A DNA stretch of 64,000 nucleotides from a virus (Duplodnaviria > Heunggongvirae > Uroviricota > Caudoviricetes): IMG/VR virus record IMGVR_UViG_3300031963_006119, one strand, 5' to 3'. Positions 1,176 through 40,897 of this stretch are shown in pieces. The notes beneath the pieces were generated by a model, which was not told where the DNA came from, did not search any database, and saw only the letters and a program-made list of their open reading frames with translations. Positions within the stretch are counted from its first letter, which is position 1. Every line of letters starts with the position of its first letter. The position numbers and the translations under genes are program-made.

Positions 1176-3113
1176 ATGAATGAAAAACATAAAGTTAGTT
1201 TTGTACAAGTAAATTTCCAAGTAGGTCCAGAAGAACTCAATTCGTTTCATTTACCATACACAGTTGGATGTCTTTGGGCACACGCTCAATCTCAACCAGA
1301 CATTGATTCGCAGTTTGAATTAAATCAATTAATCTGGCGACGTGACCCAATAGAGCAAGTAGTTGAACAATTAAAAAACGATTCAGTAGTTGGCTTTAGT
1401 ACCTACGTTTGGAATCTACAATATAATTTACACTTAGCTGAGGCTCTTAAATTACGCAATCCTAATTGTTTAATTATTTTTGGAGGACCAGAGCCGGCTG
1501 TGTCAGACCCTGCAATATTTTCTAAGTATCCTTGGATTGATGCTATTATTAAAAACGAAGGTGAAATTACTTTTACTGAAATCCTGCGTAACATTGAGAA
1601 CTTTGATCATGTGCCAGGTGTGCTAATAAATCAAAATGGTAGCGTACTAGATACTGGTCAGGCAGCACGAGTTGATGATTTATCAATTTTATCCAGTCCT
1701 TATCTAACAGGCACCTTTGATCAACTGTTAATAGATAATCCCAAGGTTAACTGGTCAGCTACACTGGAAACCAATCGTGGTTGTCCGTATCAGTGTACAT
1801 TTTGTGACTGGGGTAGTTTAACACTAAGCAAAATTAAAAAGTTTACTATAGAGCGTGTATATGCTGAACTTGAATGGATGAGTCGTAACCGCATAGATTT
1901 TGTACACGTTGCTGATGCTAATTTTGGTATTTTTCCTGAGCGAGATCGATCAATTGTAGAGCGATTTATTGAACTACAGCGTCAGTATGGTGCTCCAACT
2001 GGTATCTCTCAATCGTTTGCTAAAAATCAAAATCAAGAAGTAATTGACATTGTAGAACTGCTGGTCAAAAAAACTCTACGACCTACAACAGGTCTTAAGA
2101 TTAGCTTACAAACTTTTGACGATAATACTCTTGATGCTATCAAACGCAAAAATCTTAAAAGCAACAACATTGCTGAAATACTAGAAATTGGACGAGCAAA
2201 AGGTGTACCCATTGGTACCGAATTGATCATGGGGTTGCCGCGAGAAACACTTGAGTCTTGGCAAAACAATCTTTGGAAACTGTTAGACCTAGGTATGCAC
2301 AACGATATCGATATCTACTACTGCCAAGTACTAGAAAATGCAGAATTAAATCGAGTCCAAAAAGAAGTCTACGACATCAAGACTACAAAAATTTATGATT
2401 ATTTTAGTCCGTCGGCTCATGAAAATACTGGGGTTACAGCTGAGAGCATAGATGTTGTAATTAGTACTGCCCATATGTCTTTTGATGACATCATTGAAGC
2501 TAGTATATTCAACTGGAATTTGTTTACTTGGCACGTGGGCGGTTACAGCAACTTAGTTACTAGATTCTTAAATCGTTACAAAAATGTTTCCTATGAGGAA
2601 ATGTATACCAAATTATTTAAACAGGCACAACAGCATGAATGGTATCGTATACTGAAACAACAACAGATTGATGTACTATGTGATTGGTTCAAACACGGGC
2701 GTTGCACACTTGACAGCGGAATACCTGGAATCAAACTTTATGGCAACAGTATTATATTTCATACTCGCATGATACTAACACTTCAACCTGAGGTTGTTGC
2801 CAAATGGTATGACTTGTTAGATGAATTTGTAAAAGAATTTGAACTTGGGCAAGAGTTGCATCAGGACCTTATGGATCTACAACGACATCTTACCGTGCCA
2901 CTCAAAGAACGCAATTCTTATCCACGAACTCAACAATACCAACACAATGTTTGGCAATATTTAAACGATCACTCCAGTGAGTTACACAAAGTACCTACTA
3001 CGCTAAAGTTTGACTTTAACGAATCTACTATGAGCGATGCTCAATTTGTTGAGAGAGTATTTTGGAGACGCCGCCTCCGATTTGGACAGGCTAACATAAC
3101 CCAAATTGTTTGA
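1176..3113 (+). CDS. B12-binding domain radical SAM protein (class B-like)
   Basis: N-terminal cobalamin-binding-like region (VVGFSTYVWN...IIFGGPEP). Radical SAM Cys triad CPYQCTFCDWG. 645 aa. Confidence 0.7.
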   Translation: MNEKHKVSFVQVNFQVGPEELNSFHLPYTVGCLWAHAQSQPDIDSQFELNQLIWRRDPIEQVVEQLKNDSVVGFSTYVWNLQYNLHLAEALKLRNPNCLIIFGGPEPAVSDPAIFSKYPWIDAIIKNEGEITFTEILRNIENFDHVPGVLINQNGSVLDTGQAARVDDLSILSSPYLTGTFDQLLIDNPKVNWSATLETNRGCPYQCTFCDWGSLTLSKIKKFTIERVYAELEWMSRNRIDFVHVADANFGIFPERDRSIVERFIELQRQYGAPTGISQSFAKNQNQEVIDIVELLVKKTLRPTTGLKISLQTFDDNTLDAIKRKNLKSNNIAEILEIGRAKGVPIGTELIMGLPRETLESWQNNLWKLLDLGMHNDIDIYYCQVLENAELNRVQKEVYDIKTTKIYDYFSPSAHENTGVTAESIDVVISTAHMSFDDIIEASIFNWNLFTWHVGGYSNLVTRFLNRYKNVSYEEMYTKLFKQAQQHEWYRILKQQQIDVLCDWFKHGRCTLDSGIPGIKLYGNSIIFHTRMILTLQPEVVAKWYDLLDEFVKEFELGQELHQDLMDLQRHLTVPLKERNSYPRTQQYQHNVWQYLNDHSSELHKVPTTLKFDFNESTMSDAQFVERVFWRRRLRFGQANITQIV

Positions 3114-3177: not shown

Positions 3178-3441
3178 AGGATATATATTAAACGTTTCGC
3201 ACAGAAACTGAGATAGTAGAACCAAAGTATGTCACAAGCTGAAATGGTTCCGCGGGTCTTGGCCAATGAGAAACCCGTATTTTCGGGACGCCAAGGGTCG
3301 CCAAAGGCACACAAGTTATGAGATTGTGCGTCCAATGGAGACAACTACACGAAAGTAGGGTTCTTTCAGAGCCTCGTGAAGTTAACTCCCTTTATGTAAT
3401 GTGATATGAATTTTGTATCACACCAAGTCAAAGGAGGACTT

Positions 3442-4014
3442 ATGGAAAAGACAATCAGGGCATTAGCCCTTGCAGTAGGTTTGTTGTTTGCAGTAGTTAT
3501 TCTGCAACACATCACAAGCAATAAGTTTCAAGCTCTCAAAATGTCAGCGGGAGTAAGTTTCCCAGATGTTGTAACAATTAAGACTAGAGAAAAAGAACTC
3601 GAATGTTTAGCACTTAACATTTATCGAGAAGCAGGTTATGAGCCTTTTGAAGGAAAGGTAGCCGTAGCACAAGTTACCCTAAACCGTGTTGCGCACCCAG
3701 CGTTTCCAAAAGACGTTTGCGGTGTAGTTTATCAAAAGACTACAACAATAAGAACCATATGCCAGTTCTCATGGTATTGTGATTCAACACATCGTAACAG
3801 ACCAATAAACTCAGAAGCTTACAAAGAAAGCTATGCTGTAGCCAAAAAAGTATTATTGGAAAATTTTAAACTTGACGTATTAAAAACAGCCCTGTATTAT
3901 CATGCAGATTATGTTAACCCACAATGGAAGTTAGAAAAAATTGGAAAAATTGGAACTCACATCTTTTATAACGAAAAACCTAGAACGATTGAAAGAATAT
4001 ATGCAAAATTTTAA
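3442..4014 (+). CDS. cell wall hydrolase, SleB/Hydrolase_2 family
   Basis: RBS AAAGGAGGA then ATG 3442. TM/signal anchor. Motifs ALNIYREAGYEPFEGKVAVAQVTLNRV and FSWYCD typical of SleB-type lytic enzymes. Confidence 0.65.
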   Translation: MEKTIRALALAVGLLFAVVILQHITSNKFQALKMSAGVSFPDVVTIKTREKELECLALNIYREAGYEPFEGKVAVAQVTLNRVAHPAFPKDVCGVVYQKTTTIRTICQFSWYCDSTHRNRPINSEAYKESYAVAKKVLLENFKLDVLKTALYYHADYVNPQWKLEKIGKIGTHIFYNEKPRTIERIYAKF

Positions 4015-7582: not shown

Positions 7583-8161
7583 ATGGCAATGCACACAGAA
7601 TTGTGGTTTCCTAGTGTCATATGGTCGTCTATGACACACTTTGGTAACAACGCTGAATTAAAACGGTTTGCGTATGAAAGACAAAAAACTGATCCAGGTA
7701 GAGTTATTAGCAACTTTGGGGGTTATCAAAGTAGCGATATTAAATCAGGTGATAACGCTGATGTTGATGCGCTAGTAGAAGCTATTGGATTAGAAATTTC
7801 AGGATGTGCAAGACAAGTTGGTCTGCCGCAATTAGAATTATATAATATATGGATTAATATTAATCCACCAAATGCCTACAATCATCTCCACAATCATACT
7901 AATAGCGTATTAAGTGGAGTTTACTATGTTGATGCTCAAGAGGGACAAGGTAATATTCAGTTTGAACGATCAGACAACGGCGAATACCATATTCCTACTC
8001 AAGTAGAAAAAGGAACCTATTACACAAGTACTAGGGCTACCTATGCCTCTAAATCAGGTGCTCTGTATATATTTCCAGGTTGGCTCAAACACAGCGTACA
8101 GAGTAATAAATCAAACTCAGATAGAATCAGTATATCATTTAACTACGGCGAAAAACAATGA
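7583..8161 (+). CDS. 2OG-Fe(II) oxygenase superfamily protein (phage TIGR02466-like family)
   Basis: HxH...SGVYY...H motif pattern. Paralog of ORF 23627-24169, which shares the SGVYY motif. Confidence 0.5.
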
Positions 8162-9324
8162 GAATTGAACAAGATATAAAGTTAGACTACAAAGATGTGT
8201 TAATTCGTCCTAAGCGTAGTACATTAGGCTCTCGGCAGGAAGTAGACTTATTCCGTAAGTTTAAATTTAGAAATTACAGTCCTGCTTTTGAGCACGAAAA
8301 TTGGGAAGAATATCAATACACTGGTGTTCCAATCATGGCTGCTAATATGGACGGAGTTGGTACGTTTGCTATGGCAGACATTCTTGCACATGAAGGCATG
8401 TTTACATGTCTAGTTAAGACATATAGTGCAGAAGAATTAATTGACTTCTTTAATGCAGATGAATATTATAGAACTCATCGAGTAGCATACTCAATGGGAA
8501 TTACACAAGCTGACTACGATAAGTTTGCTAATGTGTACAGCGAAACACTAACAAACATTAAATACGTTTGTGTGGATGTTGCTAACGGCTATTCCGAGCG
8601 GTTTGCAACTTTTATTAGAAAGCTTCGTGAAGCATATCCAGAAATCGTAATCATTGCTGGCAATGTAGTGACAGGCGAAATGACTGAGGAGTTAATTTTA
8701 AGTGGAGCAGATATTATTAAAGTGGGCATTGGTCCTGGGAGCGTTTGCACAACTCGTATTCAAACTGGCGTTGGCTATCCTCAGCTTAGTGCTGTTATGG
8801 AGTGTGCTGATGCTGCTCATGGTTTGGGGGGACATATTATTGCAGACGGGGGTTGTACCTGTCCAGGAGATGTCGCCAAGGCATTTGCCGCAGGAGCGGA
8901 TTTTGTTATGCTCGGAGGGATGCTGGCTGGACACGATGAAGGCGGCGGAGAAGTCATTACAAGACTCTACGAAACTAACGAGTTACAGGCCCGACAGCGT
9001 ATCCTAGAAGACGGGCAGTCAGAGTGGACATGGACTGGCTGCAAAATAGAAGAAAAGAAATTTGTAGAATTTTATGGTATGAGTTCTGAAGCAGCCAACC
9101 TAAAACATTTTGGTGGTTTAAAAGAATACCGTAGCGCCGAAGGGCGAGAAGTTTTAGTACCTTATAAAGGTAAGGTACTAAATACTGTACAGGACATACT
9201 AGGCGGTTTGCGTAGTACCTGTACGTATGCAGGCGCTAAGACGCTAAAGCAACTTAGCAAATGCACAACCTTTGTTCGTGTAACTCAGCAATTTAATGCT
9301 GTTTATGCAAGCAATGGTAAATAA
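8158..9324 (+). CDS. guaC: GMP reductase (IMPDH/GMPR family) with internal insertion
   Basis: [23 protein letters not shown]..., [56 protein letters not shown] closely follow bacterial GuaC. Confidence 0.8.
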
Positions 9325-9896: not shown

Positions 9897-10202
9897 ATGA
9901 GTACTTTAGCAGATATCCAAATTGACGAAAAAATTAAACAGATCACTCAAGAGCCGGCCAAATACAAAGTTATTTTTATTAACGATGATGTTACCCCAAT
10001 TGAATGGGTAATAGAAGTTTTAGTGAAAACTTTTAAACATAGCCAAACTAGTGCAGAAGCACTTACACTTCAAATTCACAGCGAAGGTAGTGCAGTAGTT
10101 GGTATATACTCATACGAAATTGCAGAACAAAAAAGTGTAGAAACTACTGTAGCTTCAAGAGACAAGGGATTTCCCTTGCAGATTAGGTTAGAAAAAGAAT
10201 GA
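9897..10202 (+). CDS. clpS: ATP-dependent Clp protease adaptor ClpS
   Basis: YKVIFINDDVTPIEWVIEVL...A..L.L.IH.EG.AVVG matches ClpS core. Confidence 0.75.
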   Translation: MSTLADIQIDEKIKQITQEPAKYKVIFINDDVTPIEWVIEVLVKTFKHSQTSAEALTLQIHSEGSAVVGIYSYEIAEQKSVETTVASRDKGFPLQIRLEKE

Positions 10203-10771
10203 GCAATTTAAAAGAACTTACAAAAGAACAACATACAAATGCTGAACGCCAAGCATTTGTAAAAGTTATCGTAAGCGGTAAAATTAATCCCGAACTATAT
10301 GCCACATACTTGTGGAATCAACATAAAAAATATGATCTATTAGAAGCACTTGCAGGCGCACAAGGCCTACTCAGTGATTTACCAGATATCAGACGTAAAC
10401 TGAAAATTGAAGAAGATTTTGCAGAACTTTGGACAAAAGATGTTCAGCCAGTTATAGTACCTAGTACTATAGAATACATCAATCACATGCGAAACATAAT
10501 GATTGATGCTGACGCACTTATGGCACATATCTATGTACTACACATGGGAGATTTAAGCGGCGGCCAAATGATTGCAAAGATGGTTCCTGGTCAAGGTCGA
10601 ATGTATCAGTTCAATACAGACAAAGATAAGCTCAAAGAACTAATTAGAGCTAAGACAAAAGACAGCATGGCCGAAGAAGCAAAGTATGTATTTGAGTCAA
10701 GCACTAAATTATTTCAAGAACTAATGGAGTTAGACATTGAGCATTATTTGGAATCATCTGATCAAGTGTAA
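10199..10771 (+). CDS. heme oxygenase
   Basis: Heme oxygenase signature HMGDLSGGQMI and overall helical HO fold-length (190 aa). Confidence 0.65.
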   Translation: MSNLKELTKEQHTNAERQAFVKVIVSGKINPELYATYLWNQHKKYDLLEALAGAQGLLSDLPDIRRKLKIEEDFAELWTKDVQPVIVPSTIEYINHMRNIMIDADALMAHIYVLHMGDLSGGQMIAKMVPGQGRMYQFNTDKDKLKELIRAKTKDSMAEEAKYVFESSTKLFQELMELDIEHYLESSDQV

Positions 10772-11432
10772 AGACGACATCATAGCAGTTTTTGACCAAC
10801 AGGCTAATGAAGTACACGAAGATGGAATGGAACACTTTAATCAACCCGATTCAGGATGGATTAATAGGGTATGGTCTAATCAGTATGTACGCAGAGCTCA
10901 CATAGATGTAGTTGATGCTAGAGTCACTAAAGGTCTATGGATGATGCATGTATGCGTGTTTCCAGAACTAACCAACGGTGGACCTATATACGGCTTTGAT
11001 GTTATTGCCGGCAAAAATAAGATGACTGGAGCATTCCACGATTTTAGTCCGTCAAGCGGTGGTGCAGATCATCCTATGATATTAGGCTACAAAGATAGTG
11101 TAGAAAATTTTATTCCAAAAAAACAAAGAGAGTTGCCTCAGTGGGCTAAGAATATCTTTACAGACAAAATGTTAGCTGCCGGCAACGTAAACACCGAAGA
11201 AGAAGCAGTTGCAATTATAAACATAGCACTTAACAATCTTCATGCATATTTTGATGAAATCAGCGGATTCCAAAATACATGCGGTGTTGATGAAACCATC
11301 AAAGCACAGAATTGGTACTGTCACAATCAGCGACAGAATCCCCATACTCCTAACGTAATGAAAAGTTTAGGTTTAAATGAAGCAGACGTTGATAAGTTTT
11401 GCACAGACATGCTGTTCCCTAACATCGTATAA
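10737..11432 (+). CDS. ferredoxin-dependent bilin reductase (PebS/PcyA/PcyX-like); start uncertain
   Basis: Sits directly after heme oxygenase as in phage ho1-pebS/pcyX pairs. About 230 aa, right size. Overlaps HO 3' end so the real start may be Met at about 10827. Confidence 0.5.
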   Translation: MSIIWNHLIKCKDDIIAVFDQQANEVHEDGMEHFNQPDSGWINRVWSNQYVRRAHIDVVDARVTKGLWMMHVCVFPELTNGGPIYGFDVIAGKNKMTGAFHDFSPSSGGADHPMILGYKDSVENFIPKKQRELPQWAKNIFTDKMLAAGNVNTEEEAVAIINIALNNLHAYFDEISGFQNTCGVDETIKAQNWYCHNQRQNPHTPNVMKSLGLNEADVDKFCTDMLFPNIV

Positions 11433-11452
11433 ATATACAATAAGGATTTATT

Positions 11453-13099
11453 ATGCGATTTTACGACTTTGGAAAAACTATTGTACATGAAGCAGTTGAA
11501 TCTGATCTTGAAGCACAAAAAGCTATACACGATCTAGATACAATTGGCGTTTTTCTTGGAAATCTTCCTCCAGAAAAAGAAAATGTAAAAGCATCTGTTG
11601 CGACAAAATTAAAAAATTTGTCATCATCAATAAGTGCATTTTTAGCCAAAGCTAAGATACAAACTGCACAACCTGCACAACCTGCACCTGCACAACCTGC
11701 ACCTGCACAACCTGCACCTGCACAACCTGCACCTGCACCTGCTAGAATGTCTACAGAGAGTATTTTAGAAGCAGAAGGTGCTAGCAGCGCAATTATTTCT
11801 ACTATCGATACACTAAAGCAACAAATAAAGGCGGTTGAAGCTTCAGATATTGATGAGAAAATAAAGAAAAATTTTATTAAACCGTTTAGACAACAATTAG
11901 ACGCTTTAACTAAACAAGTGGAAGAACTCCAGTTAGCAAAAGACGATGCTGTACAAAAACAACAAGAAGCTGAAAGTTTTGTTAAAGAAGTAAGTGTTTA
12001 CCTTGTAGCTTTAGGAAACAAAGTACAAGGTTATCAAGAAGAAAATTTAGAAAAAATGTCTTCTAAAGAAAAAACACAGGCAAAGAAAAAAGCAGTAAAC
12101 GCAGCTGAATTTACAAAAACATTAAAACAAGCCTTGTTTGGAAAAATTGTAGATATTCAAGAAGAGGCCAACGCATCACCAATTGAGATTAAACAGTTCT
12201 TAGCAGCCTGCGTAAAAGGCGATGTAATTAACATGTTATCAGTTATCGGTACCGATCGCGGAAATATTAAAAACTATGTAAATCCTAAATATAAAAAATT
12301 GTTTGATATATTTGTAGAACAGAATATTTTTAGTTATTCGCCAGGTAAAACATCTGGGGCAATTGGCCCAGGAGAAATGGCCTTATCAATGATGGGAAAC
12401 CCAGCTGAGAAAGCTAAAAAAGGTGACTTAAAAGTAGGCGATGTTGAAGTAGAAATTAAGGCCAGTGCATCTACAGGCGGTAGATTAAACAGTAAGAGTA
12501 TTGCAAAAGCAACTGCGGGATGGGATCTTTGGAGGAAAGGTATTGCTAATATTGTAGCAACTGCTCCTAAGAACGCATCTATTTTTACTACTGACAAAAA
12601 AGGCGCTAGGGTAAAAGTTGCAGTTAACAAATTTAATGGCGATCAATACAACATTACAAACGGCAAAGCAAAATTAGGCAATAAGTACAATTGGAATCCA
12701 AAAGGGTTTCAGGCACTGAACGAAGAAGTACTCGAGCCATACAGTAATTTTGATAAAACATTTGAACTATTTCATACTACTATCAAATCACTAGTGTTAA
12801 ACTTTGATTCTATTAAAAATGCTGATAAATTAATTGCTTCAGCTGTTGAGCAAGACGGCACTGTAGATTGGATGAAAATGAATAGAGCCTATACTAAAAT
12901 AGCATACGAAAGCTATCACCTAGCAGACGGCATAACAACAATTATGTTTTTAAGAACAGATACTTTAGATTATAGTATTATTAAAGACGGTAATGACCTA
13001 GTTAAGAAATTAGGAAAGACTGTAACAATGGGTGCAGGATTTAACTGGAATGACGATCAACAAACTCCAACTCCAGGTTATATGGCAGCTAAGTCGTAA
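11453..13099 (+). CDS. hypothetical protein with PAQPA tandem repeats
   Basis: 15-bp nucleotide repeat CAACCTGCACCTGCA x5 (11671-11750) encoding (PAQPA)n linker; rest coiled-coil/Lys-rich. Confidence 0.5.
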   Translation: MRFYDFGKTIVHEAVESDLEAQKAIHDLDTIGVFLGNLPPEKENVKASVATKLKNLSSSISAFLAKAKIQTAQPAQPAPAQPAPAQPAPAQPAPAPARMSTESILEAEGASSAIISTIDTLKQQIKAVEASDIDEKIKKNFIKPFRQQLDALTKQVEELQLAKDDAVQKQQEAESFVKEVSVYLVALGNKVQGYQEENLEKMSSKEKTQAKKKAVNAAEFTKTLKQALFGKIVDIQEEANASPIEIKQFLAACVKGDVINMLSVIGTDRGNIKNYVNPKYKKLFDIFVEQNIFSYSPGKTSGAIGPGEMALSMMGNPAEKAKKGDLKVGDVEVEIKASASTGGRLNSKSIAKATAGWDLWRKGIANIVATAPKNASIFTTDKKGARVKVAVNKFNGDQYNITNGKAKLGNKYNWNPKGFQALNEEVLEPYSNFDKTFELFHTTIKSLVLNFDSIKNADKLIASAVEQDGTVDWMKMNRAYTKIAYESYHLADGITTIMFLRTDTLDYSIIKDGNDLVKKLGKTVTMGAGFNWNDDQQTPTPGYMAAKS

Positions 13100-13214
13100 A
13101 AATAAATTTCTTTCAGCCTATTATTGACCTAAGTTAATTAATTATTATTAACTAAGCATAGAATATTTCCTCACCTCTCGTTAAATAGTATAAGGGGTAA
13201 CCGAGGAGAGGGTC

Positions 13215-13661
13215 ATGAAATACATCACAGCATTGGGGGCAATGCTAGTGTTTGCAGGTAGTGCATTCGCTACAGAGCTAATACATAATTTTCAAAGTCC
13301 AGCCTTTATACCAGGCAATGGATTCAGTCAGCACGTCTTGTCAATCCATCAATTAGAAGAATCTAAAAAGAAAGAAATTAAGAGCGAAGAACTGGCTGCT
13401 ATAGCTAAGGCAGAAGCTGCTGCAAAACAAACAAATCTAAGTAAATTCCTTGTTAACGTAGAAGCACGTATCTACGCACAATTGTCTAAACAATTAGCAG
13501 ATCAAATGTTTGCTGAAGGTACAGGAACAAGCGGAACTATGGACTTTCAAGGAACTAATATCAGTTGGGTTAAATCGGCCACAGAAGTAACTCTAACTAT
13601 TATTGAGGCCAACGGTAGCCGAACAGAAATTACTGTACCTATAGCGAGCTTTGCATTTTAA
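13215..13661 (+). CDS. CsgF-like curli assembly protein
   Basis: Signal peptide then NFQSPAFIPGNGFSQ, matching the conserved CsgF N-terminal FQFxNPxF...G motif. About 130-aa mature size as for CsgF. Confidence 0.55.
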   Translation: MKYITALGAMLVFAGSAFATELIHNFQSPAFIPGNGFSQHVLSIHQLEESKKKEIKSEELAAIAKAEAAAKQTNLSKFLVNVEARIYAQLSKQLADQMFAEGTGTSGTMDFQGTNISWVKSATEVTLTIIEANGSRTEITVPIASFAF

Positions 13662-14908
13662 TGAAATTAATATTATCATTGTTACTTGTCACTGTTCTTT
13701 CAGGATGCGCCACCATACACATGGATGCGGCTAGGGAAGATGCTGTGGCTCTAACACCAAGAGAGAGTCTTACTAATAAAATACCACAGTTAGACGGTCC
13801 TCCAATGACCATTGCAGTTTACGGATTCACAGACAAGACAGGACAAATGAAACCTAATGATAGGTTAGCTGTGTTTTCAAAGGCAGTGACACAAGGATCT
13901 GAAGTATTTTTAATCAAAGCACTTCAAGACTCAAAAAATTGGTTTAAAGTTGTAGAGCGTGTGGGATTAGATAACCTTATTAAAGAGCGACAGTTGATAC
14001 GTAATCAACGCGAGGTTTATGAAGGTAAAGATGCTAGACCATTAAAGCCAATGACTGTGGCAGGAATTATGATCGAAGGTGGTATCATTGGCTACGACAG
14101 CAACATACGCAGTGGCGGCAACGGCGCACGATTCTTAGGTATTGGCGGAAGTCAACAATATCGTGTAGATGAAATTGTAATTAGTCTTAGACTAGTAAGT
14201 GTAAACAGTGGGGAAGTATTAATTTCTAATGCTGTGAGCAAAACTATCTATAGCACACAACATAACGTTGGCGTATTAAGATTTGTTGATGCTGGAACCA
14301 AAGCACTAGAATTAGAAAACGGGCAGGCTCTAAATGAACCTACAACATATGCTGTTCGTGTTGCTATAGAACAAGCAGTATATGACATGATCATTGAAGG
14401 CGAAAAGAAAGGAATGTGGAGATTTAAAAAATCTGTAACACAAGAAGTGCCTGTAGTAAAGGAGGAAAAGAAAGATGAGCTGGTTCAACCACAAACCTCA
14501 CAAGCACCCCAAGGAGCCCCAGAGCCCTTACCACCCGCACCGATCGAGCCCGTCAAGCAAGAAAGCAATGGAGCAAGCCAAACAGTCGAGCCCAAAGCAG
14601 AAAAAATAACAAGGATAGTTCCTATACAACCAGAACATTTAGTAGTTGTAGAAAAAGTAGAAACAAATACAAATACTGCTCCAGTAGTTAAGCCACCCGC
14701 TCAATTGTGGAGTTCTAGATATCTTAAAGAAGATTCGTTTGTATACAAAGAACCAAATGAAAAAAGTCAACGAACATGGCAATTGAAAAAGGGAACAGAA
14801 TTTAATATCATTTCTCCAGGTCCGGAGGGGTGGCATTATGTAGTAGACGCAGAGAAGCGTAAGGGGTATGTGCGAGCTGACGTGCTTTCAGAACACAGAC
14901 CAAAATGA
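13661..14908 (+). CDS. csgG: CsgG-family curli secretion channel lipoprotein with C-terminal Pro-rich linker and SH3b-like domain
   Basis: Lipobox LSGCAT. IMIEGGIIGYDSNIRSGGNGARFLGIGGSQQYRVDEIVISLRLVSVNSGEVL is near-identical in pattern to the E. coli CsgG core. Extra about 140 aa with PxP linker and W...GYV SH3b-like end. Confidence 0.8.
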   Translation: MKLILSLLLVTVLSGCATIHMDAAREDAVALTPRESLTNKIPQLDGPPMTIAVYGFTDKTGQMKPNDRLAVFSKAVTQGSEVFLIKALQDSKNWFKVVERVGLDNLIKERQLIRNQREVYEGKDARPLKPMTVAGIMIEGGIIGYDSNIRSGGNGARFLGIGGSQQYRVDEIVISLRLVSVNSGEVLISNAVSKTIYSTQHNVGVLRFVDAGTKALELENGQALNEPTTYAVRVAIEQAVYDMIIEGEKKGMWRFKKSVTQEVPVVKEEKKDELVQPQTSQAPQGAPEPLPPAPIEPVKQESNGASQTVEPKAEKITRIVPIQPEHLVVVEKVETNTNTAPVVKPPAQLWSSRYLKEDSFVYKEPNEKSQRTWQLKKGTEFNIISPGPEGWHYVVDAEKRKGYVRADVLSEHRPK

Positions 14909-14987
14909 GAGTTAAGCATAGGAGAAAGTCTTTATTAAACTTAAAATTAGATGCATTAACAAACATAACTTGCATCTGGAGCGAAAA

Positions 14988-15659
14988 ATGAAAAAAAGAA
15001 TCACAGGCGGTGGTAAGTTGTCGAGAAAAGTACTTACAATTCTAATGATGGCTGGAATGCTGTCATCGGGGGCGTGGGCCAACGATGTTTATGTTGATCA
15101 GATCGGTGATAATACATCTGTATCTATTACACAAACAGGAGCAGGCAACACAGTAAACGGTAATGTTGGTGGCAACGGCAACGTTGATGATGCTGCTATA
15201 ATTCGTGGCGATCTCAATAATGTAACTATAAGTCAAATTGGTGCTAGCAATACACTTAGTATGATTGTTAACAATGAATCTAATGGAACAGGATCTACCA
15301 TAGTAGTTTCAGCAGATGGTAGCAACAACAATCAAACTATCGGTTGTGGTACTGCATTAAGTTCAAGTTGTAATGCTAGTATTATTAGATCTGAAATTAC
15401 AGGTAATAGCAACAATACTATACAGACGTTAAGTGGTGGCGTTGTGCAGAGTAAAATTAATATTAATGGCGATTACAACAATGTAACACATACAGCATCA
15501 GGTGTAGGTTTACATAATGGAGAAATAACAGTTTCAGGCAGTGGCACTAATCAACTTGCCAATGCAGTGACACTAACACAGAGTGGAGTATTCGCTAAAA
15601 ATGCAGTTATTACCAGCAACGGTTCTAATAATAACGTTATTGTTACTCAGTCCGATTAA
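14988..15659 (+). CDS. secreted curlin-repeat (CsgA/CsgB-like) protein
   Basis: Signal peptide. Repeated Q-x-G-x-x-N-x-(x)5-x-Q units (DQIGDNTSVSITQTGAGNTVNG, ISQIGASNTLSM, TLTQSGVFAKNAVITSNGSNNNVIVTQ) resembling curlin repeats. Asn/Ser/Thr/Gly-rich. Confidence 0.55.
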   Translation: MKKRITGGGKLSRKVLTILMMAGMLSSGAWANDVYVDQIGDNTSVSITQTGAGNTVNGNVGGNGNVDDAAIIRGDLNNVTISQIGASNTLSMIVNNESNGTGSTIVVSADGSNNNQTIGCGTALSSSCNASIIRSEITGNSNNTIQTLSGGVVQSKININGDYNNVTHTASGVGLHNGEITVSGSGTNQLANAVTLTQSGVFAKNAVITSNGSNNNVIVTQSD

Positions 15660-16704
15660 TAGCTTTGCCGGTGTTGGTAAAGTTACTGAACAGACTGGGC
15701 CTACAGAAATTGTAAGGAATAAGAAAAGTATTCCTTCTAGTCTAAACACGGGTGTGGAGATGAATGACACCATCTCCACAGCTAAAGCCAAAGCTGAATT
15801 AACCTTTGAAGATAAAACTACAGTTAAACTTACAGAACACAGTAAAATGATCATAGATGATTTTGTCTATGATCCAAAAAAAGGTTCTGGTAAATTAGCC
15901 ATCAATATGGCCTTAGGCACAGCTCGTTATGCAAGCGGACAAATAGCAAAAAATAATCCGCAACAGGTTGCTATCAAAACACCTACCGCTACTATTGCTG
16001 TGCGAGGCACTGATTTTTCTATGACAGTAGATGAATTAGGACGCAGTCTTGTAGTACTACTTCCTAGTTGTTCTCCAAACGGAGGCTGTGTTACTGGTGC
16101 TATCGAAGTTAGAAATCTAGCAGGTGTTGTGATATTAGATGTACCATATCAAGCTACATTAGTTAACAGTGCTTACACAGTACCTACAGAACCTACAATT
16201 GTAAAATTAGACCAAGCAAACATTAACAACATGTTGATCATTAGCAAACCTAAAGAAGTTGCAGATACAGAACAGGCTGGCCTAGCTAAGAAAGAAAAAT
16301 CTATTTTAGATTTTAACGAACTAGATATCGATTTGTTAAAGTTTAGTGCATTAGATGAAAATTCTTTAGATAAAAAAAATGAGTTAGATAGAAATGATTT
16401 AAATGCAGACCTATTAGCATTTAATGAATTAAATGAACTTGATAGACAAAATGCTAGTTTGTTGAGCAATGAATTAGACAATCCAATATTACCAGGATAC
16501 TCAGCAAACAAACCATTAGGCTTGTTGTATTATTTTAATGATGATCAAACTAAGGTTACATTATACAAGGCAGGTACACACAATACCACAGCAACATTTG
16601 ATACAACAAAGAACATTACATTTACCTTAATTCAAGATGGGCAGACTATTATTCAAAACGTGAATAAAGGTAGTACCAGCACTCTTATTGTAACACAAAA
16701 TTAA
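15583..16704 (+). CDS. secreted FecR-domain protein (start uncertain, overlaps upstream gene by about 55-77 nt in another frame)
   Basis: Signal peptide LLPATVLIITLLLLSPINSFA. FecR-like beta region (..TTVKLTEHSKMIIDDFVY...GTARY...VAIKTPTATIAVRGTDFSM). C-terminal Asp/Leu/Asn repeat region. Confidence 0.5.
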   Translation: MEYSLKMQLLPATVLIITLLLLSPINSFAGVGKVTEQTGPTEIVRNKKSIPSSLNTGVEMNDTISTAKAKAELTFEDKTTVKLTEHSKMIIDDFVYDPKKGSGKLAINMALGTARYASGQIAKNNPQQVAIKTPTATIAVRGTDFSMTVDELGRSLVVLLPSCSPNGGCVTGAIEVRNLAGVVILDVPYQATLVNSAYTVPTEPTIVKLDQANINNMLIISKPKEVADTEQAGLAKKEKSILDFNELDIDLLKFSALDENSLDKKNELDRNDLNADLLAFNELNELDRQNASLLSNELDNPILPGYSANKPLGLLYYFNDDQTKVTLYKAGTHNTTATFDTTKNITFTLIQDGQTIIQNVNKGSTSTLIVTQN

Positions 16705-16719
16705 CTAGTAGGTTTAGAA

Positions 16720-16750
16720 ATAAAAAACCCGCCAGGCGGGTTTTTTATGG
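16720..16750 (+). terminator. rho-independent terminator
   Basis: AAAAACCCGCC-AGG-CGGGTTTTTT. Confidence 0.7.
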
Positions 16751-16762
16751 TAAATACTTCAT

Positions 16763-17317
16763 ATGAAAATACTTGAAATAATCCAAGAAGCAGAAGCTAG
16801 CGACGATGAATTGCGTCAGCGGTACGGTGACTTTGATCCAGAAGATAAGCCAATGTTGCCTACTACTAAAGTTGGTGGAGCGCCGGCACCGACGCTATGG
16901 ACTGCATACGAAGCTATTCAAGATATATTAGGTAGAAGTCGAGTAACAGACGACGATGATGACTTAGAGCCCGGCATGTATTATGTCTACCCCAGTAACG
17001 AAACACCAATGTTTAAAGATACCGAAGAATCTGGCCCTGGCGGCAGTATTAATATTCCAAATTTAGAAAGCAAGGCTGCTCGTGATGTTGCGATTGCAGC
17101 TCACGAAGCATGTCATGCTTATGTACACGATCGTACAAAAGGTAGCGGGCGTGTTTATGCTAATGAAAAGATTATTAATAATCTAGCAGAGAAGTGGTTA
17201 CGTAAACATCTAAGCGGCACAGCATTACACGTTGCACTAGAAACTATCACAGGCAGTCGTATTAGTTATGGTAAGGATTACATGCCTAAAGGTCCAACAT
17301 CGGACAAAAGAAAATGA
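16763..17317 (+). CDS. hypothetical protein
   Basis: ORF after terminator; HEACHAY motif could be a metalloprotease-like HExxH, unverified. Confidence 0.45.
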   Translation: MKILEIIQEAEASDDELRQRYGDFDPEDKPMLPTTKVGGAPAPTLWTAYEAIQDILGRSRVTDDDDDLEPGMYYVYPSNETPMFKDTEESGPGGSINIPNLESKAARDVAIAAHEACHAYVHDRTKGSGRVYANEKIINNLAEKWLRKHLSGTALHVALETITGSRISYGKDYMPKGPTSDKRK

Positions 17318-17778
17318 AAATAAATGAACTAATGGCGGCAACTTCAGTGCCGTGGAAATGGACTTATCGCAGTGAGCGTCAGGCCACTGCTGAATTTACT
17401 GTGGGCAATGTGCTGTATGAATTCAAAGCAAAGAATTCAGAATACGATCATGTAGATGCAGACCGTGATGTAGTAGGCTACGATGATGAAGAAGAAAATG
17501 AAGAAGTTGACTACCGTGGTTACTGGGAAATTAGTTTTAACGGTGACGGCAAAACTAGCATGACCGGAACTGGTAACTCCGCACAAGTTATATCAGCTAT
17601 CACTGCTATAATAAAAGATTTCTTAATAACATACGACGATAAGATTCAAGTGATAGAATATGATGTACAAGGGTCTAGCGGTAGGGCAGGAGTATATGGT
17701 CGTATTTTTAATAAGCTGTTGCCAAATTGGACACAAGAAGATGGCTCACTACACGATGTGGAGGTAAAAAGACCATGA
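17314..17778 (+). CDS. hypothetical acidic protein
   Basis: ATGA overlap with previous gene. Confidence 0.45.
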   Translation: MKINELMAATSVPWKWTYRSERQATAEFTVGNVLYEFKAKNSEYDHVDADRDVVGYDDEEENEEVDYRGYWEISFNGDGKTSMTGTGNSAQVISAITAIIKDFLITYDDKIQVIEYDVQGSSGRAGVYGRIFNKLLPNWTQEDGSLHDVEVKRP

Positions 17779-18068
17779 GAAAAATATTATTAATTTTATT
17801 AGTTTGTTTGTCTAGCACAGTCAATGCACAATTTAGATATGATTATCCCTTGTTGTGTGACAGTACTGAAAAGATCATAAAAAGCCTTGGGGAAAATTAT
17901 AAAGAAATATTAACCTGGGGCGGAAAGCATTCTAGTGATAATAGTGCCTACAGTTTATGGATCAATGAAAAAGAAGGATCTTGGACATTACTTAAAATGA
18001 CTCCTGAAACTAGTTGCATACTAGGAGTAGGCACAGAATCTAAAATTAAACTAGGTACGTCAATATAA
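17775..18068 (+). CDS. small secreted protein
   Basis: Signal peptide MRKILLILLVCLSSTVNA; internal Met start overlapping upstream stop. Confidence 0.45.
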   Translation: MRKILLILLVCLSSTVNAQFRYDYPLLCDSTEKIIKSLGENYKEILTWGGKHSSDNSAYSLWINEKEGSWTLLKMTPETSCILGVGTESKIKLGTSI

Positions 18069-20113
18069 TGATTAAAAAAATACTTTTAAGTCCATGGACT
18101 GCTCTATTAACTCTAGCGTTAGTAGTAGGCATACGAATAGCAGATCCTACATTCGTTGAAAGTGTAAGACTACGCTACTTTGATACATTAATTACTTCTA
18201 AAGCACCTACAGAAAATAACATCTATACAGTTAACATAGACGAAGCTGCTTTAGACAAATACGGCCAATGGCCATTACCCAGGGCAGAATATGCTAAAAT
18301 TATTAAAGATTTGTATGATCGTGGTGCTGGCCTTGTCGTTCTCAATGTGCTTATGGCTGAGCCTGATCGCACTGGTGGCGACTCAACTCTTGCCTCAGCT
18401 CTTAAACAATATCCTGTAGTACTAGGATCAGTGCCTGCTGATAAAACTAAAAATATACCACGCAACCCAGGCAGTGCTGTACTAGGGCCAGAGTGGTTAG
18501 ATCAAATTGTACAATACCCGGGCCTTATTGCTAACGTACCGCAGTTAGAAAATTCAGCAGCAGGAATTGGTATTGTATCAACTATGCCTGAAGTTGACGG
18601 AGTGAATCGTCGATTACCTCTTATCGTTGCAGTTGGCGATAAACTTTATCCTAGCATAGCTATGGAAACACTGCGAGTAGCAGCTGGCGATTCAACCTTT
18701 CAAATCAAACTTTTTGAAGGCGGTGTTGAAAAAATGCGTATACCTAAGTTTGGTCCTGTTACTACAGATAACTTAGGTCGGGTATGGATTGATTGGAGTC
18801 AACAAAGTAAAAATGTTAGTTTACTTGAGTTGCCTAAAAACCTAGATGGTGCTATTGTTATTGTTGGTCCAACCGCAGCTGGTATCAGTAATCCTGTACC
18901 AACCAGTATGGGTGCTGTATTCCCACATGCTGTGCAGGCTAGTGTTATTGCTACAATGATTAACGGTATAGTTATACAGAGACCAGATTATGCCAACGGT
19001 GTAGAAATCTTAACACTAGTATTAGCAGGTATACTATTATTATTCTTAACAAGGTGGACTTATGTTGGTATTATTTCAGGTGTTGTTATTATTGGGACTA
19101 GTGTATTCGCTGGCTCCTATGCTTATGCACAGTTTAGTTGGCTCTTCGATTCAACTGGTATTGTGGTCGGGCTTGTTCTGGTTATGCTTCATGCTTATGG
19201 CATTAAGTTTATAAGCGAGTTCTTACAGAAACAAGCAATCAAGAAACAATTTGCAGGCTATGCTAGCCCTACAGTAGTTAGACTGTTACAAGAAAATCCA
19301 GACTTAATTAAGAAGGGTGTTAAGAAAGAAGTCAGTATACTGTTCTCAGACTTACGCGGCTTTACACCCTTAGGTGAAAGTTTTGGAGATGACGTTGCAG
19401 GTCTTACAAAAATAATGAACGGCTACATGGATGCCATTACACAACCTGTACTAGATGCAGACGGTATGATTATTAAGTACATTGGTGATGCTAGTATGCA
19501 TATACATAATGCACCTATTGAAGATTTGAACCATCCTGCTACAGCAGTACGCACAGGATTGAAGATGCTTAAAGCAGTGGAGAAATTTAATGAAGAAATC
19601 ATTATACCTCAAGGAAGACCTGCCGTTGGCATGGGTGCTGGTATTAATACAGGGTTGGGATATATTGGAGAGATGGGATCAACTGCAAGACACAGCTACG
19701 ATGTACTAGGTGATGCTGTTAGTACTGCTGCCCGTATTGAAAGTAAATGTAAAGAGTATGGATGCTTGTTGCTAGTTGGCGGCGCAACAGTTGATCGCTG
19801 TGGAGATGACTTCTTCTTCCTTAAGATTGATGATCTTGCTGTAAAAGGTAAGAGTGTAGGAATTGCTATCTATACAGTATTAGATGATATCACTGATACG
19901 TATCATGTTGCTAAAAAAATACACGAATCAATGCACGGTGCATACAGAGGACAAAAGTTTAGTACGGCTATTAGCATGTGTAAACAACTAAAAGGTCAGT
20001 TTGACGGCAAAATGGACAAGTATTACGACATGTGGATAGAGCGTTGTGAGTTCCAGCAGACTCAAACTCTACCTAAAGATTGGAACGGCGTTTTTATAGC
20101 GACAAGTAAATAA
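18068..20113 (+). CDS. membrane CHASE2-sensor class III adenylate/guanylate cyclase
   Basis: N-terminal TM, periplasmic CHASE2-like region, 3-4 TM helices. Cyclase catalytic core ILFSDLRGFTPLGE...YIGDASM...GINTGLGYIGEMGS. Confidence 0.7.
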   Translation: MIKKILLSPWTALLTLALVVGIRIADPTFVESVRLRYFDTLITSKAPTENNIYTVNIDEAALDKYGQWPLPRAEYAKIIKDLYDRGAGLVVLNVLMAEPDRTGGDSTLASALKQYPVVLGSVPADKTKNIPRNPGSAVLGPEWLDQIVQYPGLIANVPQLENSAAGIGIVSTMPEVDGVNRRLPLIVAVGDKLYPSIAMETLRVAAGDSTFQIKLFEGGVEKMRIPKFGPVTTDNLGRVWIDWSQQSKNVSLLELPKNLDGAIVIVGPTAAGISNPVPTSMGAVFPHAVQASVIATMINGIVIQRPDYANGVEILTLVLAGILLLFLTRWTYVGIISGVVIIGTSVFAGSYAYAQFSWLFDSTGIVVGLVLVMLHAYGIKFISEFLQKQAIKKQFAGYASPTVVRLLQENPDLIKKGVKKEVSILFSDLRGFTPLGESFGDDVAGLTKIMNGYMDAITQPVLDADGMIIKYIGDASMHIHNAPIEDLNHPATAVRTGLKMLKAVEKFNEEIIIPQGRPAVGMGAGINTGLGYIGEMGSTARHSYDVLGDAVSTAARIESKCKEYGCLLLVGGATVDRCGDDFFFLKIDDLAVKGKSVGIAIYTVLDDITDTYHVAKKIHESMHGAYRGQKFSTAISMCKQLKGQFDGKMDKYYDMWIERCEFQQTQTLPKDWNGVFIATSK

Positions 20114-20114
20114 T

Positions 20115-20447
20115 TTACTTACCTGTACTGTCAAATTTCTGACTTTGGCTTTGATATTTGTTAATAATAAAATCTAATTCTGCTCGATCATCGTTATTAA
20201 GTTGTTGATCAAGCATTGTTTTGTGTTCTAGCACCATTGCTAGTTTTGTGTTCATGCGAATCATGTCGTTGTCTAACATTCGTACACGATCTACTAACTT
20301 AATCAGCGTACCCATTGTTTCACCTATGATAGGATCTATTTCCTCAGTTACCCACTTCCATATAAAGTAGATAAAATATCCCATGCCCATTGCGGCAATA
20401 ATAGGAAATCCATACTCATTAATTGCTTTTGCAATATCATCTAACAT
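20115..20447 (-). CDS. small membrane protein (opposite strand)
   Basis: 110 aa, one TM (FPIIAAMGMGYFIYFIW) plus coiled coil. Converges on the cyclase stop. Confidence 0.45.
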   Translation of the reverse strand: MLDDIAKAINEYGFPIIAAMGMGYFIYFIWKWVTEEIDPIIGETMGTLIKLVDRVRMLDNDMIRMNTKLAMVLEHKTMLDQQLNNDDRAELDFIINKYQSQSQKFDSTGK

Positions 20448-20725
20448 TAGTCTCTCCTTGCATCGTTCTTACCTTCGTTAGCCGCAATTCGGTCTACGTT
20501 AGGTTTTACTTTTAGTGCATAGCTCATGAGAGCATCGATCTTTACTAGATCGTTGTTCATAGTTTGTACACGATTATCAAGCTGTGCAATAATGTTTTTT
20601 AGTGTTTTTACTGATCCAGTAACGCCCGCTAGAATAAACTTCAGCGAGATAAACACAAAGATTCCGGCCGCTAGTGCCCCTGCGATCGGAAATCCAACAT
20701 CTCCTACTAATGTTAGAAAATCCAT
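20447..20725 (-). CDS. small membrane protein (opposite strand)
   Basis: 92 aa, N-terminal TM (FPIAGALAAGIFVFISL) then coiled-coil. Stop/start overlap with 20115-20447. Confidence 0.45.
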   Translation of the reverse strand: MDFLTLVGDVGFPIAGALAAGIFVFISLKFILAGVTGSVKTLKNIIAQLDNRVQTMNNDLVKIDALMSYALKVKPNVDRIAANEGKNDARRD

Positions 20726-20825
20726 AAAAAAAGCCCCCTACGCTCTGCTATTGTATTTAGCTGTAGCCACTCCAAAAATTAGAATTTGGTAAATACAATG
20801 ACACTTTTAGTTCAAAGGAGAGGGA

Positions 20826-21110
20826 ATGAACAGTGACTTAAAACTATTTAAATGGATAATACTACTTCTAGCGTTACCGTTAGGATTAGCATATTTCAGC
20901 GATGGTGATAGATTCCGTTACCCATGCCAAAACCCAGACAATTGGGAGAAAGCAGAATGTCAGCTACCGAGATGTGATGTAACACGAACATGCCCGGAGC
21001 ATATATTCAAAGGCGGTAGAGATCCTAGACTAGGACCACCAAAGGACGGGGATACTCCAGCAATGAGTAAACCAGCTACTTCAAAAATTGATATTAAGGA
21101 ATGCAAATAA
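20826..21110 (+). CDS. small secreted Cys-containing protein
   Basis: RBS GGAGAGGGA, signal peptide, 4 Cys. Confidence 0.4.
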   Translation: MNSDLKLFKWIILLLALPLGLAYFSDGDRFRYPCQNPDNWEKAECQLPRCDVTRTCPEHIFKGGRDPRLGPPKDGDTPAMSKPATSKIDIKECK

Positions 21111-21712: not shown

Positions 21713-21903
21713 CTGCTATTTTTCTTTATTGATTCCTTCAATGATCGTTATTAAAAAATACAATGAAAAACTGCTGGATAGTAGTTGATTTCTATTGTAA
21801 ATACATGTATAATAAACTTGTTCAGGTAGAAAACTCAGTATTTACACTGAGGTAATTTTAAACTGATAATTATTATTTCATGACACACACTAAGGAGAAG
21901 TAT

Positions 21904-22443
21904 ATGAAAACAGTTGGTGATAAACTAGAAAAATTTGCAGTCACAGGTGTTAAGCCAGGACAACCAGAAGATGCGTTCTTTGAAATTACAGACGAGAGTT
22001 TTGCAGGAAAATGGAAAGTAATCGTTTACTATCCAAAAGATTTTACATTTGTTTGCCCTACAGAAATTGTAGCCTACGACAAATTGGCACAAGACTTTGC
22101 TGATCGCGATGCAGTATTGCTCACAGGTAGCACAGACAATGAGTTCTGCAAAGTTAGCTGGCAAAATGCTCACGCAGATCTAAAGAAAATTACTCATACA
22201 CAATTTGCTGATACACAGCGTGGCGAGTTGAGCTTGATTGAACAGTTGGGCGTGTTCTACGCACCAGCAGGTGCCGCACTTCGTGCAACATTCATCGTTG
22301 ATCCAAACAATGAAATCCAACACGTTACTGTTAACAACTTAAACGTTGGTCGTAGCCCAGAAGAAACACTTCGTGTATTGGATGCGCTACAAACTGGCGA
22401 ACTTTGCGCTTGTAATCGCACAGTCGGGGGAGAGACTCTATAA
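21904..22443 (+). CDS. peroxiredoxin (AhpC/TSA family)
   Basis: RBS AAGGAGAAG. Peroxidatic motif DFTFVCPTEI. Resolving Cys near C-terminus (GELCAC). Confidence 0.75.
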   Translation: MKTVGDKLEKFAVTGVKPGQPEDAFFEITDESFAGKWKVIVYYPKDFTFVCPTEIVAYDKLAQDFADRDAVLLTGSTDNEFCKVSWQNAHADLKKITHTQFADTQRGELSLIEQLGVFYAPAGAALRATFIVDPNNEIQHVTVNNLNVGRSPEETLRVLDALQTGELCACNRTVGGETL

Positions 22444-40243: not shown

Positions 40244-40251
40244 CCAATTTA

Positions 40252-40338: not shown

Positions 40339-40349
40339 CCAAATTAAAT

Positions 40350-40754: not shown

Positions 40755-40809
40755 CATATTAGTTGACTTTGATTGTAAAGAGTGTACAATTAAAATATAG
40801 AAAGTTTTT

Positions 40810-40880: not shown

Positions 40881-40897
40881 CCAAAGTGTTAGTTTTT

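Follow-up and report, generated by a model that had tools for sequence, protein, structure and literature searches.

A viral curli-type secretion module with an SH3b-like tail on CsgG in an uncultured large phage

Curli-type gene clusters encoding a type VIII secretion system (T8SS) have been described in several phages, and they are the closest counterparts of the locus analysed here, which lies at positions 13215–20113 of a 64,000-nucleotide stretch of Caudoviricetes DNA (IMG/VR record IMGVR_UViG_3300031963_006119), hereafter the window. A curli cluster is widespread in pelagimyophages, where uptake or 'sibling capture' was proposed as its function (Zaragoza-Solas et al. 2020, PMC7029224). 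For the Methylophilales phage Melnitz a CsgGF pore was modelled and a role in lysis timing proposed (Buchholz et al. 2022, PMC9004378). The full set, consisting of a histidine kinase, CsgF, CsgG, CsgA/B, FecR, a second CsgA/B and an adenylate cyclase, was reported in podophages and myophages, together with the global abundance of the viral curli genes (about 0.1% of the assembled viral proteins in GOV2.0), their expression in ocean metatranscriptomes and their transfer between viral families (PMC9599517, 2022). The described hosts of curli-bearing phages have no T8SS (PMC7029224, PMC9004378, PMC9599517).

The window carries genes for CsgF, CsgG, a curlin-repeat protein, a FecR-domain protein, a variable slot and a CHASE2 adenylate cyclase, in this order. 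This is the published gene order of the viral T8SS, except that the window lacks the upstream histidine kinase and the second, optional curlin gene (PMC9599517). The locus belongs to a published and widespread kind of module, and its identity as a viral T8SS is almost certain. The original prediction, made from the letters alone, had proposed a module of four genes. The four open reading frames (ORFs) are present at 13215–13661, 13661–14908, 14970–15659 and 15583–16704, all on the + strand, and all four are real; the end set at FecR came too early, since the CHASE2 cyclase at 18068–20113 was missed. The same prediction had considered such machinery unusual in a phage, a view that is out of date because the module is already annotated in Pelagibacter phage HTVC008M and in Melnitz and has been published (PMC7029224, PMC9004378, PMC9599517).

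A tblastn search of the GenBank phages with the window CsgG retrieved four Melnitz genomes and HTVC008M (51–54% identity), where the depositors annotated, in order, CsgF, CsgG, a curlin-associated protein, a FecR-domain or hypothetical protein, a second curlin-like or hypothetical protein and an adenylate cyclase. These genomes, together with 65 IMG/VR viral contigs, some of them of 160–364 kb, are the other csgG-bearing phages whose search had been suggested. Linkage across these 65 viral loci is strict, with denominators given by the loci that have enough flank: CsgF lies upstream of CsgG in 62/62, a curlin-repeat gene follows CsgG directly in 56/56, a FecR-domain gene is present in 49/49 and a cyclase is found no more than 10 kb downstream in 34/34.

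The gene order and families of the window are alike in HTVC008M (gp014–gp019), in HTVC023P-type podophages and in uncultivated pelagimyophages (PMC7029224; PMC9599517), and these pelagiphage modules, like that of the window, contain no CsgC, CsgD or CsgE. Identity to the window proteins is 47–51% for the CsgG core, 48% for CsgF, 42% for the FecR-domain protein and 36% for the cyclase. Unlike its window homologue, the CsgG of HTVC008M (280 residues) has neither linker nor SH3 domain, and a second curlin-like gene takes the place, between FecR and the cyclase, of the three small unrelated ORFs of the window. The podophage modules are preceded by a histidine kinase, whereas the 548-residue protein upstream of the window module has no kinase domain. 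Melnitz gp99–gp104 encode CsgF, CsgG, a curlin-repeat protein, a FecR-domain protein, a second curlin-repeat protein and a cyclase, ordered as in the window, with 48–54% identity in the CsgG core and 53% in the cyclase. In contrast to the window, the Melnitz CsgG (278 residues) has no SH3b domain and there are two curlin-repeat genes; the Melnitz genome is T4-like (Kyanoviridae) and measures 141 kb, and the role its authors proposed is pinholin- or secretin-like (PMC9004378). The window lineage differs from the pelagiphages in its much larger genomes, in an array of 28 transfer RNA (tRNA) genes and in a heme oxygenase and bilin reductase just upstream. The range of the module extends beyond pelagiphage-type genomes of ~140 kb and podophages to a clade of much larger phages, in which it adjoins these two genes.

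Bacterial curli systems (E. coli csgBAC/csgDEFG, and alphaproteobacterial-type operons without csgCDE) share with the window the CsgG channel, the CsgF plug motif and a subunit with Q-x-G-x-x-N repeats. With respect to E. coli, identity is ~40%, CsgE, CsgC and CsgD are missing and the constriction residues are changed; with respect to bacterial curli as a whole, the window module is virus-encoded, comes with a linked FecR-domain protein and CHASE2 cyclase and has an SH3b-like tail on CsgG.

Channel, plug and candidate fibre subunit

The first gene (13215–13661, +) encodes a CsgF homologue, as had been predicted. Its match to Pfam CsgF (PF10614; 3e-16, 60.2 bits against a cut-off of 25.8) covers profile positions 4–132 of 132, and phrog_35372 matches it end to end (1e-41). 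By inspection, a signal peptide would be cleaved between GSAFA and TELIH. The motif F-x-x-P-x-F-x-x-G at the N-terminus of the mature protein is invariant across the aligned phage CsgFs and is presumably common to them and E. coli CsgF. In E. coli the N-terminal peptide of CsgF is located inside the CsgG barrel, and the protein serves in fibre nucleation and anchoring. A PDB sequence search with the window CsgF gave no match.

The CsgG core (residues 1–265; 13661–14455, +) matches Pfam CsgG (PF03783) over residues 48–254 with an E-value of 4.5e-54 (183.4 bits against a cut-off of 20.8), and the window protein matches the E. coli CsgG structures 6lqh, 3x2r and 4uv3 at E = 2.5e-50 and a phage PHROG end to end. 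The NCBIfam model PRK15184 is found at 8e-55, yet with a score of 186 against an equivalog cut-off of 505; the protein is therefore a member of the CsgG family and not an ortholog-grade match to enterobacterial CsgG. A lipobox L-S-G-C with Cys16 was recognised by inspection (MKLILSLLLVTVLSG-C16-A), and its residues S14, G15 and C16 are kept in at least 90% of 59 CsgG homologues. Behind the lipobox the core comprises the periplasmic domain and the region predicted to form the channel. The assignment as a CsgG lipoprotein thus holds, while the description of its core as near-identical to E. coli CsgG was overstated, identity to the enterobacterial csgG record being 40.5% (about 40% to E. coli CsgG).

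The third gene (14988–15659, +) encodes a secreted curlin-repeat protein, a candidate fibre subunit of the CsgA/B type. The ORF was listed from a TTG at 14970, and the ATG at 14988, with GGAG 9 nucleotides upstream, is the likelier start. A signal peptide cleaved between SGAWA and NDVYV was again identified by inspection. Repeats of the form Q-x-G-x-x-N occupy both ends of the protein, with two family-invariant cysteines in the middle. An alignment of 13 homologues, 26–84% identical to the window protein, leaves as invariant positions the Q, G and N of the Q-x-G-x-x-N motifs (Q38, G40, Q49, G51, N54, Q83, G85, N88, G111, N114, G139, N142, Q198, G200 and Q221) and the two cysteines. The Pfam profile Curlin_rpt (PF07012) matches 10 of 13 phage family members (E <= 0.01), the best at 1.7e-10, and a precomputed match to it exists in about half of the close homologues. 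When a profile of the family was compared with 177,635 distinct PDB sequences, two entries alone were found, 8c50 (2.7e-4) and E. coli CsgA 8enq (0.11), both of them curli subunits. At the level of the family these sequence comparisons clearly support a curlin-like protein, as originally proposed for the third gene.

The invariant cysteines, C120 and C128 (numbered from the ATG at 14988), lie among degenerate middle repeats in all phage curlin homologues. Their invariance suggests a disulphide in the phage curlins, a feature not known from E. coli CsgA.

The CsgG linker and SH3b-like tail

Beyond the core, the window CsgG continues with a low-complexity linker rich in Pro, Glu, Lys and Gln (residues ~266–347; 14456–14701, +) and ends in an SH3b-like domain (residues ~348–415, with the stop codon; 14702–14908, +). 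In an alignment of 59 homologues a near-invariant core is followed by a linker variable in length and sequence and by a conserved C-terminal block of ~65 residues. The bacterial SH3 profiles of Pfam score below their cut-offs on residues 360–410 of the window protein (SH3_3, PF08239, 24.1 bits against 27; SH3_4, PF06347, 21.7 against 24.1), and SH3_4 scores above its cut-off in the relatives P0390 (33.2 bits), P0393 (37.3) and L023 (24.2; L numbers denote the loci and contigs compared). An AlphaFold2 (AF2) model of residues 342–415 is a six-stranded barrel with a predicted local distance difference test (pLDDT) score of 81. Its best Foldseek matches in the PDB, at E about 2e-3 and a TM-score of 0.70, are the SH3b domains of 3npf and 4r0k (NlpC/P60 dipeptidyl-peptidase VI) and of 4krt (phage endolysin Psm); all top PDB matches are SH3 domains, with eukaryotic SH3 domains coming next. 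On the evidence of the model the C-terminal domain is an SH3 beta-barrel, which bears out the early claim of a Pro-rich linker and an SH3b-like domain on CsgG.

The distribution of the tail is narrow. A phmmer search with the SH3 domain against 1.84 billion representative proteins gave 80 matches only, and the nearest carriers of the window subtype are CsgG proteins or fragments of them, for some of which the SH3_4 cut-off is exceeded. A quick neighbour-joining tree built on the CsgG cores limits the tail to the terminal clade of the window and to L023; HTVC008M, Melnitz and the other viral clades are without it. A second, divergent SH3b subtype (with VNIR, GWIP and FIKV motifs) occupies the same C-terminal position in L017 (9959–11188), L021 (9995–11134) and L026 (9995–11209), where SH3_3 scores 28.8, 36.3 and 27.1 bits, all above the cut-off. 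The presence of a second subtype at the same place argues that the position has been selected for an SH3b function. The viral curli literature (PMC7029224, PMC9004378, PMC9599517) makes no mention of SH3, peptidoglycan or a C-terminal extension, and a full-text literature search for CsgG with SH3 returned nothing relevant. The fusion of CsgG, linker and SH3b is apparently unreported and confined to the large-phage clade.

In E. coli structures the C-terminus of CsgG is periplasmic. The tail would thus be periplasmic, with a linker whose length suffices to reach the sacculus, and it most likely tethers the channel to peptidoglycan, by analogy with the cell-wall enzymes to which the closest folds belong. 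A linker and an SH3b tail of two divergent subtypes suggest an apparatus that is stably anchored to the cell wall. Some observations pull the other way. The domain is absent from the close relatives L018 and L019 (both with the linker only), L020 and L067, for which reason the tail is regarded as selected but accessory; it evolves fast; and ligands other than peptidoglycan are possible. Among clade members the median amino-acid identity and pN/pS (nonsynonymous over synonymous differences per site) are 93% and 0.075 for the core, which is under strong purifying selection, 51% and 0.44 for the SH3b domain and 39% and 0.74 for the linker, the ratios being given uncorrected alone because synonymous sites are near saturation (pS 0.6–0.77).

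The same domain could instead be a protein-interaction module, binding neighbouring Pro-rich linkers, the FecR-domain protein or curlin, and acting as a periplasmic gate or recruiter in place of CsgE. SH3 folds often bind proline-rich peptides, and the CsgG linker is Pro-rich; many of the Foldseek matches are eukaryotic SH3 domains; no CsgE was recognised; and the closest NCBIfam match is a weak one (0.0037) to the uncharacterised SH3-and-anchor family TIGR04211. This role is nevertheless considered unlikely, as it is SH3b domains from cell-wall enzymes that match the structure best, another domain of the SH3_3 type, usual in cell-wall-binding proteins, substitutes for it in three relatives, and the fact that close relatives function without any SH3 domain fits an anchor better than an essential gate.

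C-terminal extensions of another kind, of low complexity and 200–300 residues, were seen in CsgG-like lipoproteins of Granulosicoccaceae (L082 3690–5294, L084 9983–11707 and L086 3801–5237). A SPOR-like peptidoglycan-binding C-terminus, noted by eye on the Granulosicoccus CsgG-like protein of L084, gave no Pfam match and was dropped.

FecR-domain protein, variable slot and cyclase

The fourth gene encodes a secreted FecR-domain protein (15601–16704, +), in line with the first assignment. The ATG at 15601 is a likelier start than the GTG at 15583. The FecR domain (PF04773; 7.4e-12, 46 bits against a cut-off of 24) spans residues ~62–157 of the ORF counted from the GTG at 15583, and by inspection the signal peptide would be cleaved between PINSFA and GVGK, a site of the A-x-A type like those of CsgF and the curlin protein. 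The domain is followed by an acidic segment rich in Leu, Asp, Glu and Asn and by a C-terminal region to which no fold was assigned. The protein is matched over its full length by phrog_37870 (3e-88); NCBIfam gave weak matches, far below cut-off, to secreted proteins of the Leptospira LipL45/Lsa33 type, and a PDB sequence search gave none. No sigma factor or TonB receptor is encoded in the module. It is a FecR-domain protein and not a FecR anti-sigma regulator, because it has a signal peptide and lacks an anti-sigma domain and a partner sigma factor or transducer.

The last gene of the module (18068–20113, +) encodes a CHASE2 sensor adenylate/guanylate cyclase with an N-terminal transmembrane segment, a periplasmic CHASE2 domain (2.3e-39, 136 bits), more transmembrane segments and a cytoplasmic class III cyclase domain (Guanylate_cyc, 4.5e-15, 56 bits). 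Both metal-binding Asp motifs are present (FSDLRGFT and KYIGDA), class III cyclases of the PDB are matched down to 2.9e-21, and phrog_35576 matches the full length (2.4e-192).

Every locus examined links the FecR-domain protein to the CHASE2 cyclase. Bacterial FecR–CHASE2 sensor cassettes offer a precedent for such linkage, among them the 'BiofilmReg' operon of Burkholderia contaminans, where a periplasmic LysM-FecR protein is encoded beside a CHASE2 histidine kinase (PMC5192318). As in the window, the gene of a secreted FecR-domain protein adjoins that of a membrane sensor whose CHASE2 domain is periplasmic, the system includes a domain of the peptidoglycan-binding type (LysM there, SH3b here) and a link to a biofilm or surface phenotype exists (PMC5192318). 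The output differs, being a histidine kinase and response regulator in 'BiofilmReg' and a class III nucleotide cyclase in the window, and so does the place of the peptidoglycan-binding domain, which is on the FecR protein in the former and on the channel in the latter; 'BiofilmReg' has no curli genes. On the strength of the gene linkage and of this precedent, the two window proteins may form a single envelope-sensing unit with cyclic AMP (cAMP), or cGMP, as output.

The slot between the two genes swaps secreted proteins among loci. The gap from FecR to cyclase ranges from 6 nucleotides to 7 kb across the viral loci and measures 1364 nucleotides in the window, and it holds a second curlin gene in pelagimyophages and three small ORFs in the window, a replacement that seems not to have been reported. 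The first ORF (16763–17317, +; 184 residues) has a HEACH motif resembling HExxH and the second (17314–17778, +; 154 residues) is acidic; neither has a signal peptide or any Pfam, PHROG or NCBIfam match. Homologues of these two at the same position occur only in L020 and L067, at 79–82% identity for the first, and both ORFs probably stand outside the secretion machinery. The third (17776–18068, +) encodes a small secreted protein with the signal peptide MRKILLILLVCLSSTVNA, cleaved before Q, for which no informative family or PDB match was found. Its stop overlaps the ATG of the cyclase (TAATG), which suggests translational coupling of the two, and homologues directly precede the cyclase region in L004, L009, L018, L022, L026 and L030.

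In closer relatives of the window the slot contains secreted proteins of 680–1164 residues with N-terminal signal peptides (L004 13122–15170, L005 13104–16598, L012 13053–15404, L022 12918–15479 and L067 12563–15121); where a record exists, it shows no Pfam family. Such proteins, which the window lacks, could serve as cargo or as surface factors particular to a lineage.

A mechanism can be proposed in which a wall-tethered channel exports an amyloid subunit and is coupled to a cAMP sensor; as a whole, we give it an even chance of being right. Five products of the module would be exported by the Sec system during infection, and the CsgG lipoprotein would assemble as an outer-membrane channel capped by CsgF through its conserved N-terminal peptide. 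The curlin-repeat protein would thread this channel unfolded and polymerise on the surface of the infected cell as a beta-solenoid fibre with Q/N ladders. Each CsgG subunit would bear, on a flexible linker of ~80 residues, a periplasmic SH3b domain, most likely a peptidoglycan tether. The periplasmic FecR-domain protein, perhaps with the small secreted protein, would constitute with the CHASE2 cyclase an envelope sensor whose output would be cAMP in the host cytoplasm. The phage might benefit, as has been proposed in the literature, through aggregation or 'sibling capture' or by excluding other phages.

Several results weigh against this mechanism. No CsgE-, CsgC- or CsgH-like gene was recognised in the module. 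Aligned with E. coli CsgG by HMMER, the constriction loop reads KPNDRLAVFSKAV against KPYPASNFSTAV, and of the E. coli constriction residues (Y51, N55 and F56) it keeps the equivalent of F56 alone; the loop does not vary within the phage clade, and with its residues changed the properties of the channel may differ. The Pfam check of 13215–15659 placed CsgF and CsgG well above their cut-offs, and the window curlin protein itself slightly below that of Curlin_rpt (20.4 bits in that check, 20.4–20.6 over all runs, against 20.7). An AF2 model of this protein, built on a shallow alignment of sequences 81–91% identical, is all-beta with a strand-turn-strand arrangement but of low confidence (pLDDT 62), and a Foldseek search of the PDB with it gave no significant match, with nothing below E = 0.06; the list consists of various beta-helix proteins, with FapC and CsgA at low ranks. 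Fibres of viral curli have been shown in no experiment anywhere, and clumping of Melnitz-infected cells was not seen (Buchholz et al., PMC9004378).

The missing gate, the divergent constriction and the lack of clumping in Melnitz infections (PMC9004378) would suit another function, in which CsgG and CsgF form an outer-membrane pore for the uptake of larger solutes or cofactors, as proposed in PMC7029224 and PMC9599517, or for gated lysis timing in the manner of a secretin or pinholin, as proposed in PMC9004378, and the curlin-like protein is not an exported amyloid. An outer-membrane pore is unable to depolarise the inner membrane, unlike a holin, and a stable peptidoglycan tether suits a long-lived apparatus better than a lysis trigger; the SH3b tails in two subtypes also argue against a transient lysis pore. 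Neither does a pore without cargo sit easily with a curlin-repeat gene that follows csgG at all 56 viral loci and whose invariant positions are the Q, G and N of the amyloid motif, or with the retention at all 62 loci of CsgF, a protein of fibre nucleation and anchoring. A pore alone is accordingly held to be improbable.

Starting from the export mechanism, a more ambitious possibility, put forward tentatively and rated doubtful, is that in this one clade of large aquatic phages the channel has turned into a device acting across the whole envelope. Nine SH3b domains per CsgG ring would fix the channel to the sacculus, FecR and CHASE2 would report the status of the envelope or fibre as cAMP, and a single operon would both build an amyloid coat and rewire host cAMP, with the slot between FecR and cyclase supplying lineage-specific cargo or surface factors. 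Viral curli modules are abundant in aquatic viromes, and the window locus supplies concrete constructs for functional tests.

Phage setting of the module

The phage is large and uncultured, and the module is set in its accessory-gene region. Within 7.3 kb of the window (40171–47509) there are 28 tRNA genes, 27 on the + strand and one on the - strand, covering 19 amino acids and interspersed with small ORFs, a dense array typical of large or jumbo phages. Nearly all genes of the window lie on one strand. PHROG matches include endonuclease VII, an ATP-dependent DNA ligase, a head-maturation-protease-like protein, QueD, a PNK-like protein and phosphoesterases. The accessory genes of the window form a series characteristic of large aquatic phages, in which 2OG-Fe oxygenases, HSP20 and ClpS stand beside the heme oxygenase and bilin reductase and the radical SAM, SleB-type, IMPDH/GMP-reductase-like, peroxiredoxin and SPFH genes placed below. 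The phage context first assumed for the window is borne out by the tRNA array, the phage PHROG matches and the viral relatives in IMG/VR.

An origin of the window in a bacterial chromosome or island, with the module as an ordinary bacterial curli operon, was also weighed. All families are bacterial in origin, and related modules occur on contigs binned into bacterial metagenome-assembled genomes (MAGs). In one scan of bacterial genome contigs, a sample of insufficient size to tell whether the module had been taken up en bloc, complete modules were found only on short MAG-binned contigs, assigned to Polynucleobacter, Pelagibacter, Rhodobacteraceae, Flavobacteriaceae, Pirellulales, Bacteroidetes and Legionellales. 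These are probably mis-binned phage DNA, because the contigs are short, their taxa are unrelated and two of them (L074 and L078) also bear the phage-type pair of heme oxygenase and bilin reductase. The contigs that do look bacterial (L084, L088 and L090) have CsgG with no FecR or cyclase nearby. Together with the tRNA array, the strand bias, the phage PHROGs that match the module proteins end to end and relatives that comprise IMG/VR viral contigs of up to 364 kb and two cultured phage genomes, this speaks against a bacterial chromosome and makes such an origin very improbable. The homologues listed for the curlin and FecR proteins were close viral relatives alone, and no bacterial neighbourhood was reached through them. 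The MAG contigs with complete phage-type modules are L074–L079, L083, L085 and L092.

A megablast of window positions 10000–20200 against the GenBank phages gave no match; the window therefore has no close sequenced relative there. The window DNA ligase is at most 36% identical to isolates by tblastn, which gives no taxonomic placement. A scan of 12900–20900 for sigma-70 promoters and terminators returned counts equal to chance, from which operon boundaries could not be drawn. The T4 late-promoter motif TATAAATA occurs once in 64 kb, at 11428–11435, just upstream of the gene of the 548-residue PAQPA-repeat protein, against 5.8 occurrences expected by chance. With the count below expectation, the phage probably does without late promoters of the T4 type, in contrast to the Kyanoviridae bearing the related module. 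The PAQPA-repeat protein was considered as a counterpart of the podophage histidine kinase and rejected, having no family match in Pfam, NCBIfam or PHROG.

Elsewhere in the window are a porin-like fragment (162–653), a B12-binding radical SAM protein (1176–3113), a SleB-type cell-wall hydrolase (3406–4014), an IMPDH/GMP-reductase-like protein (8158–9324), a peroxiredoxin (21880–22443) and an SPFH/Band 7 protein (29862–30656). The heme oxygenase and ferredoxin-dependent bilin reductase lie at 10199–11432, just upstream of the curli module, and the pair holds the same upstream position in 23/56 related viral loci with enough flank. Besides the window, the contigs concerned fall within L003–L027, L067, L074 and L078, and its neighbourhood in the relatives also holds ribosomal protein S21, HSP70, HSP20 and ClpS.

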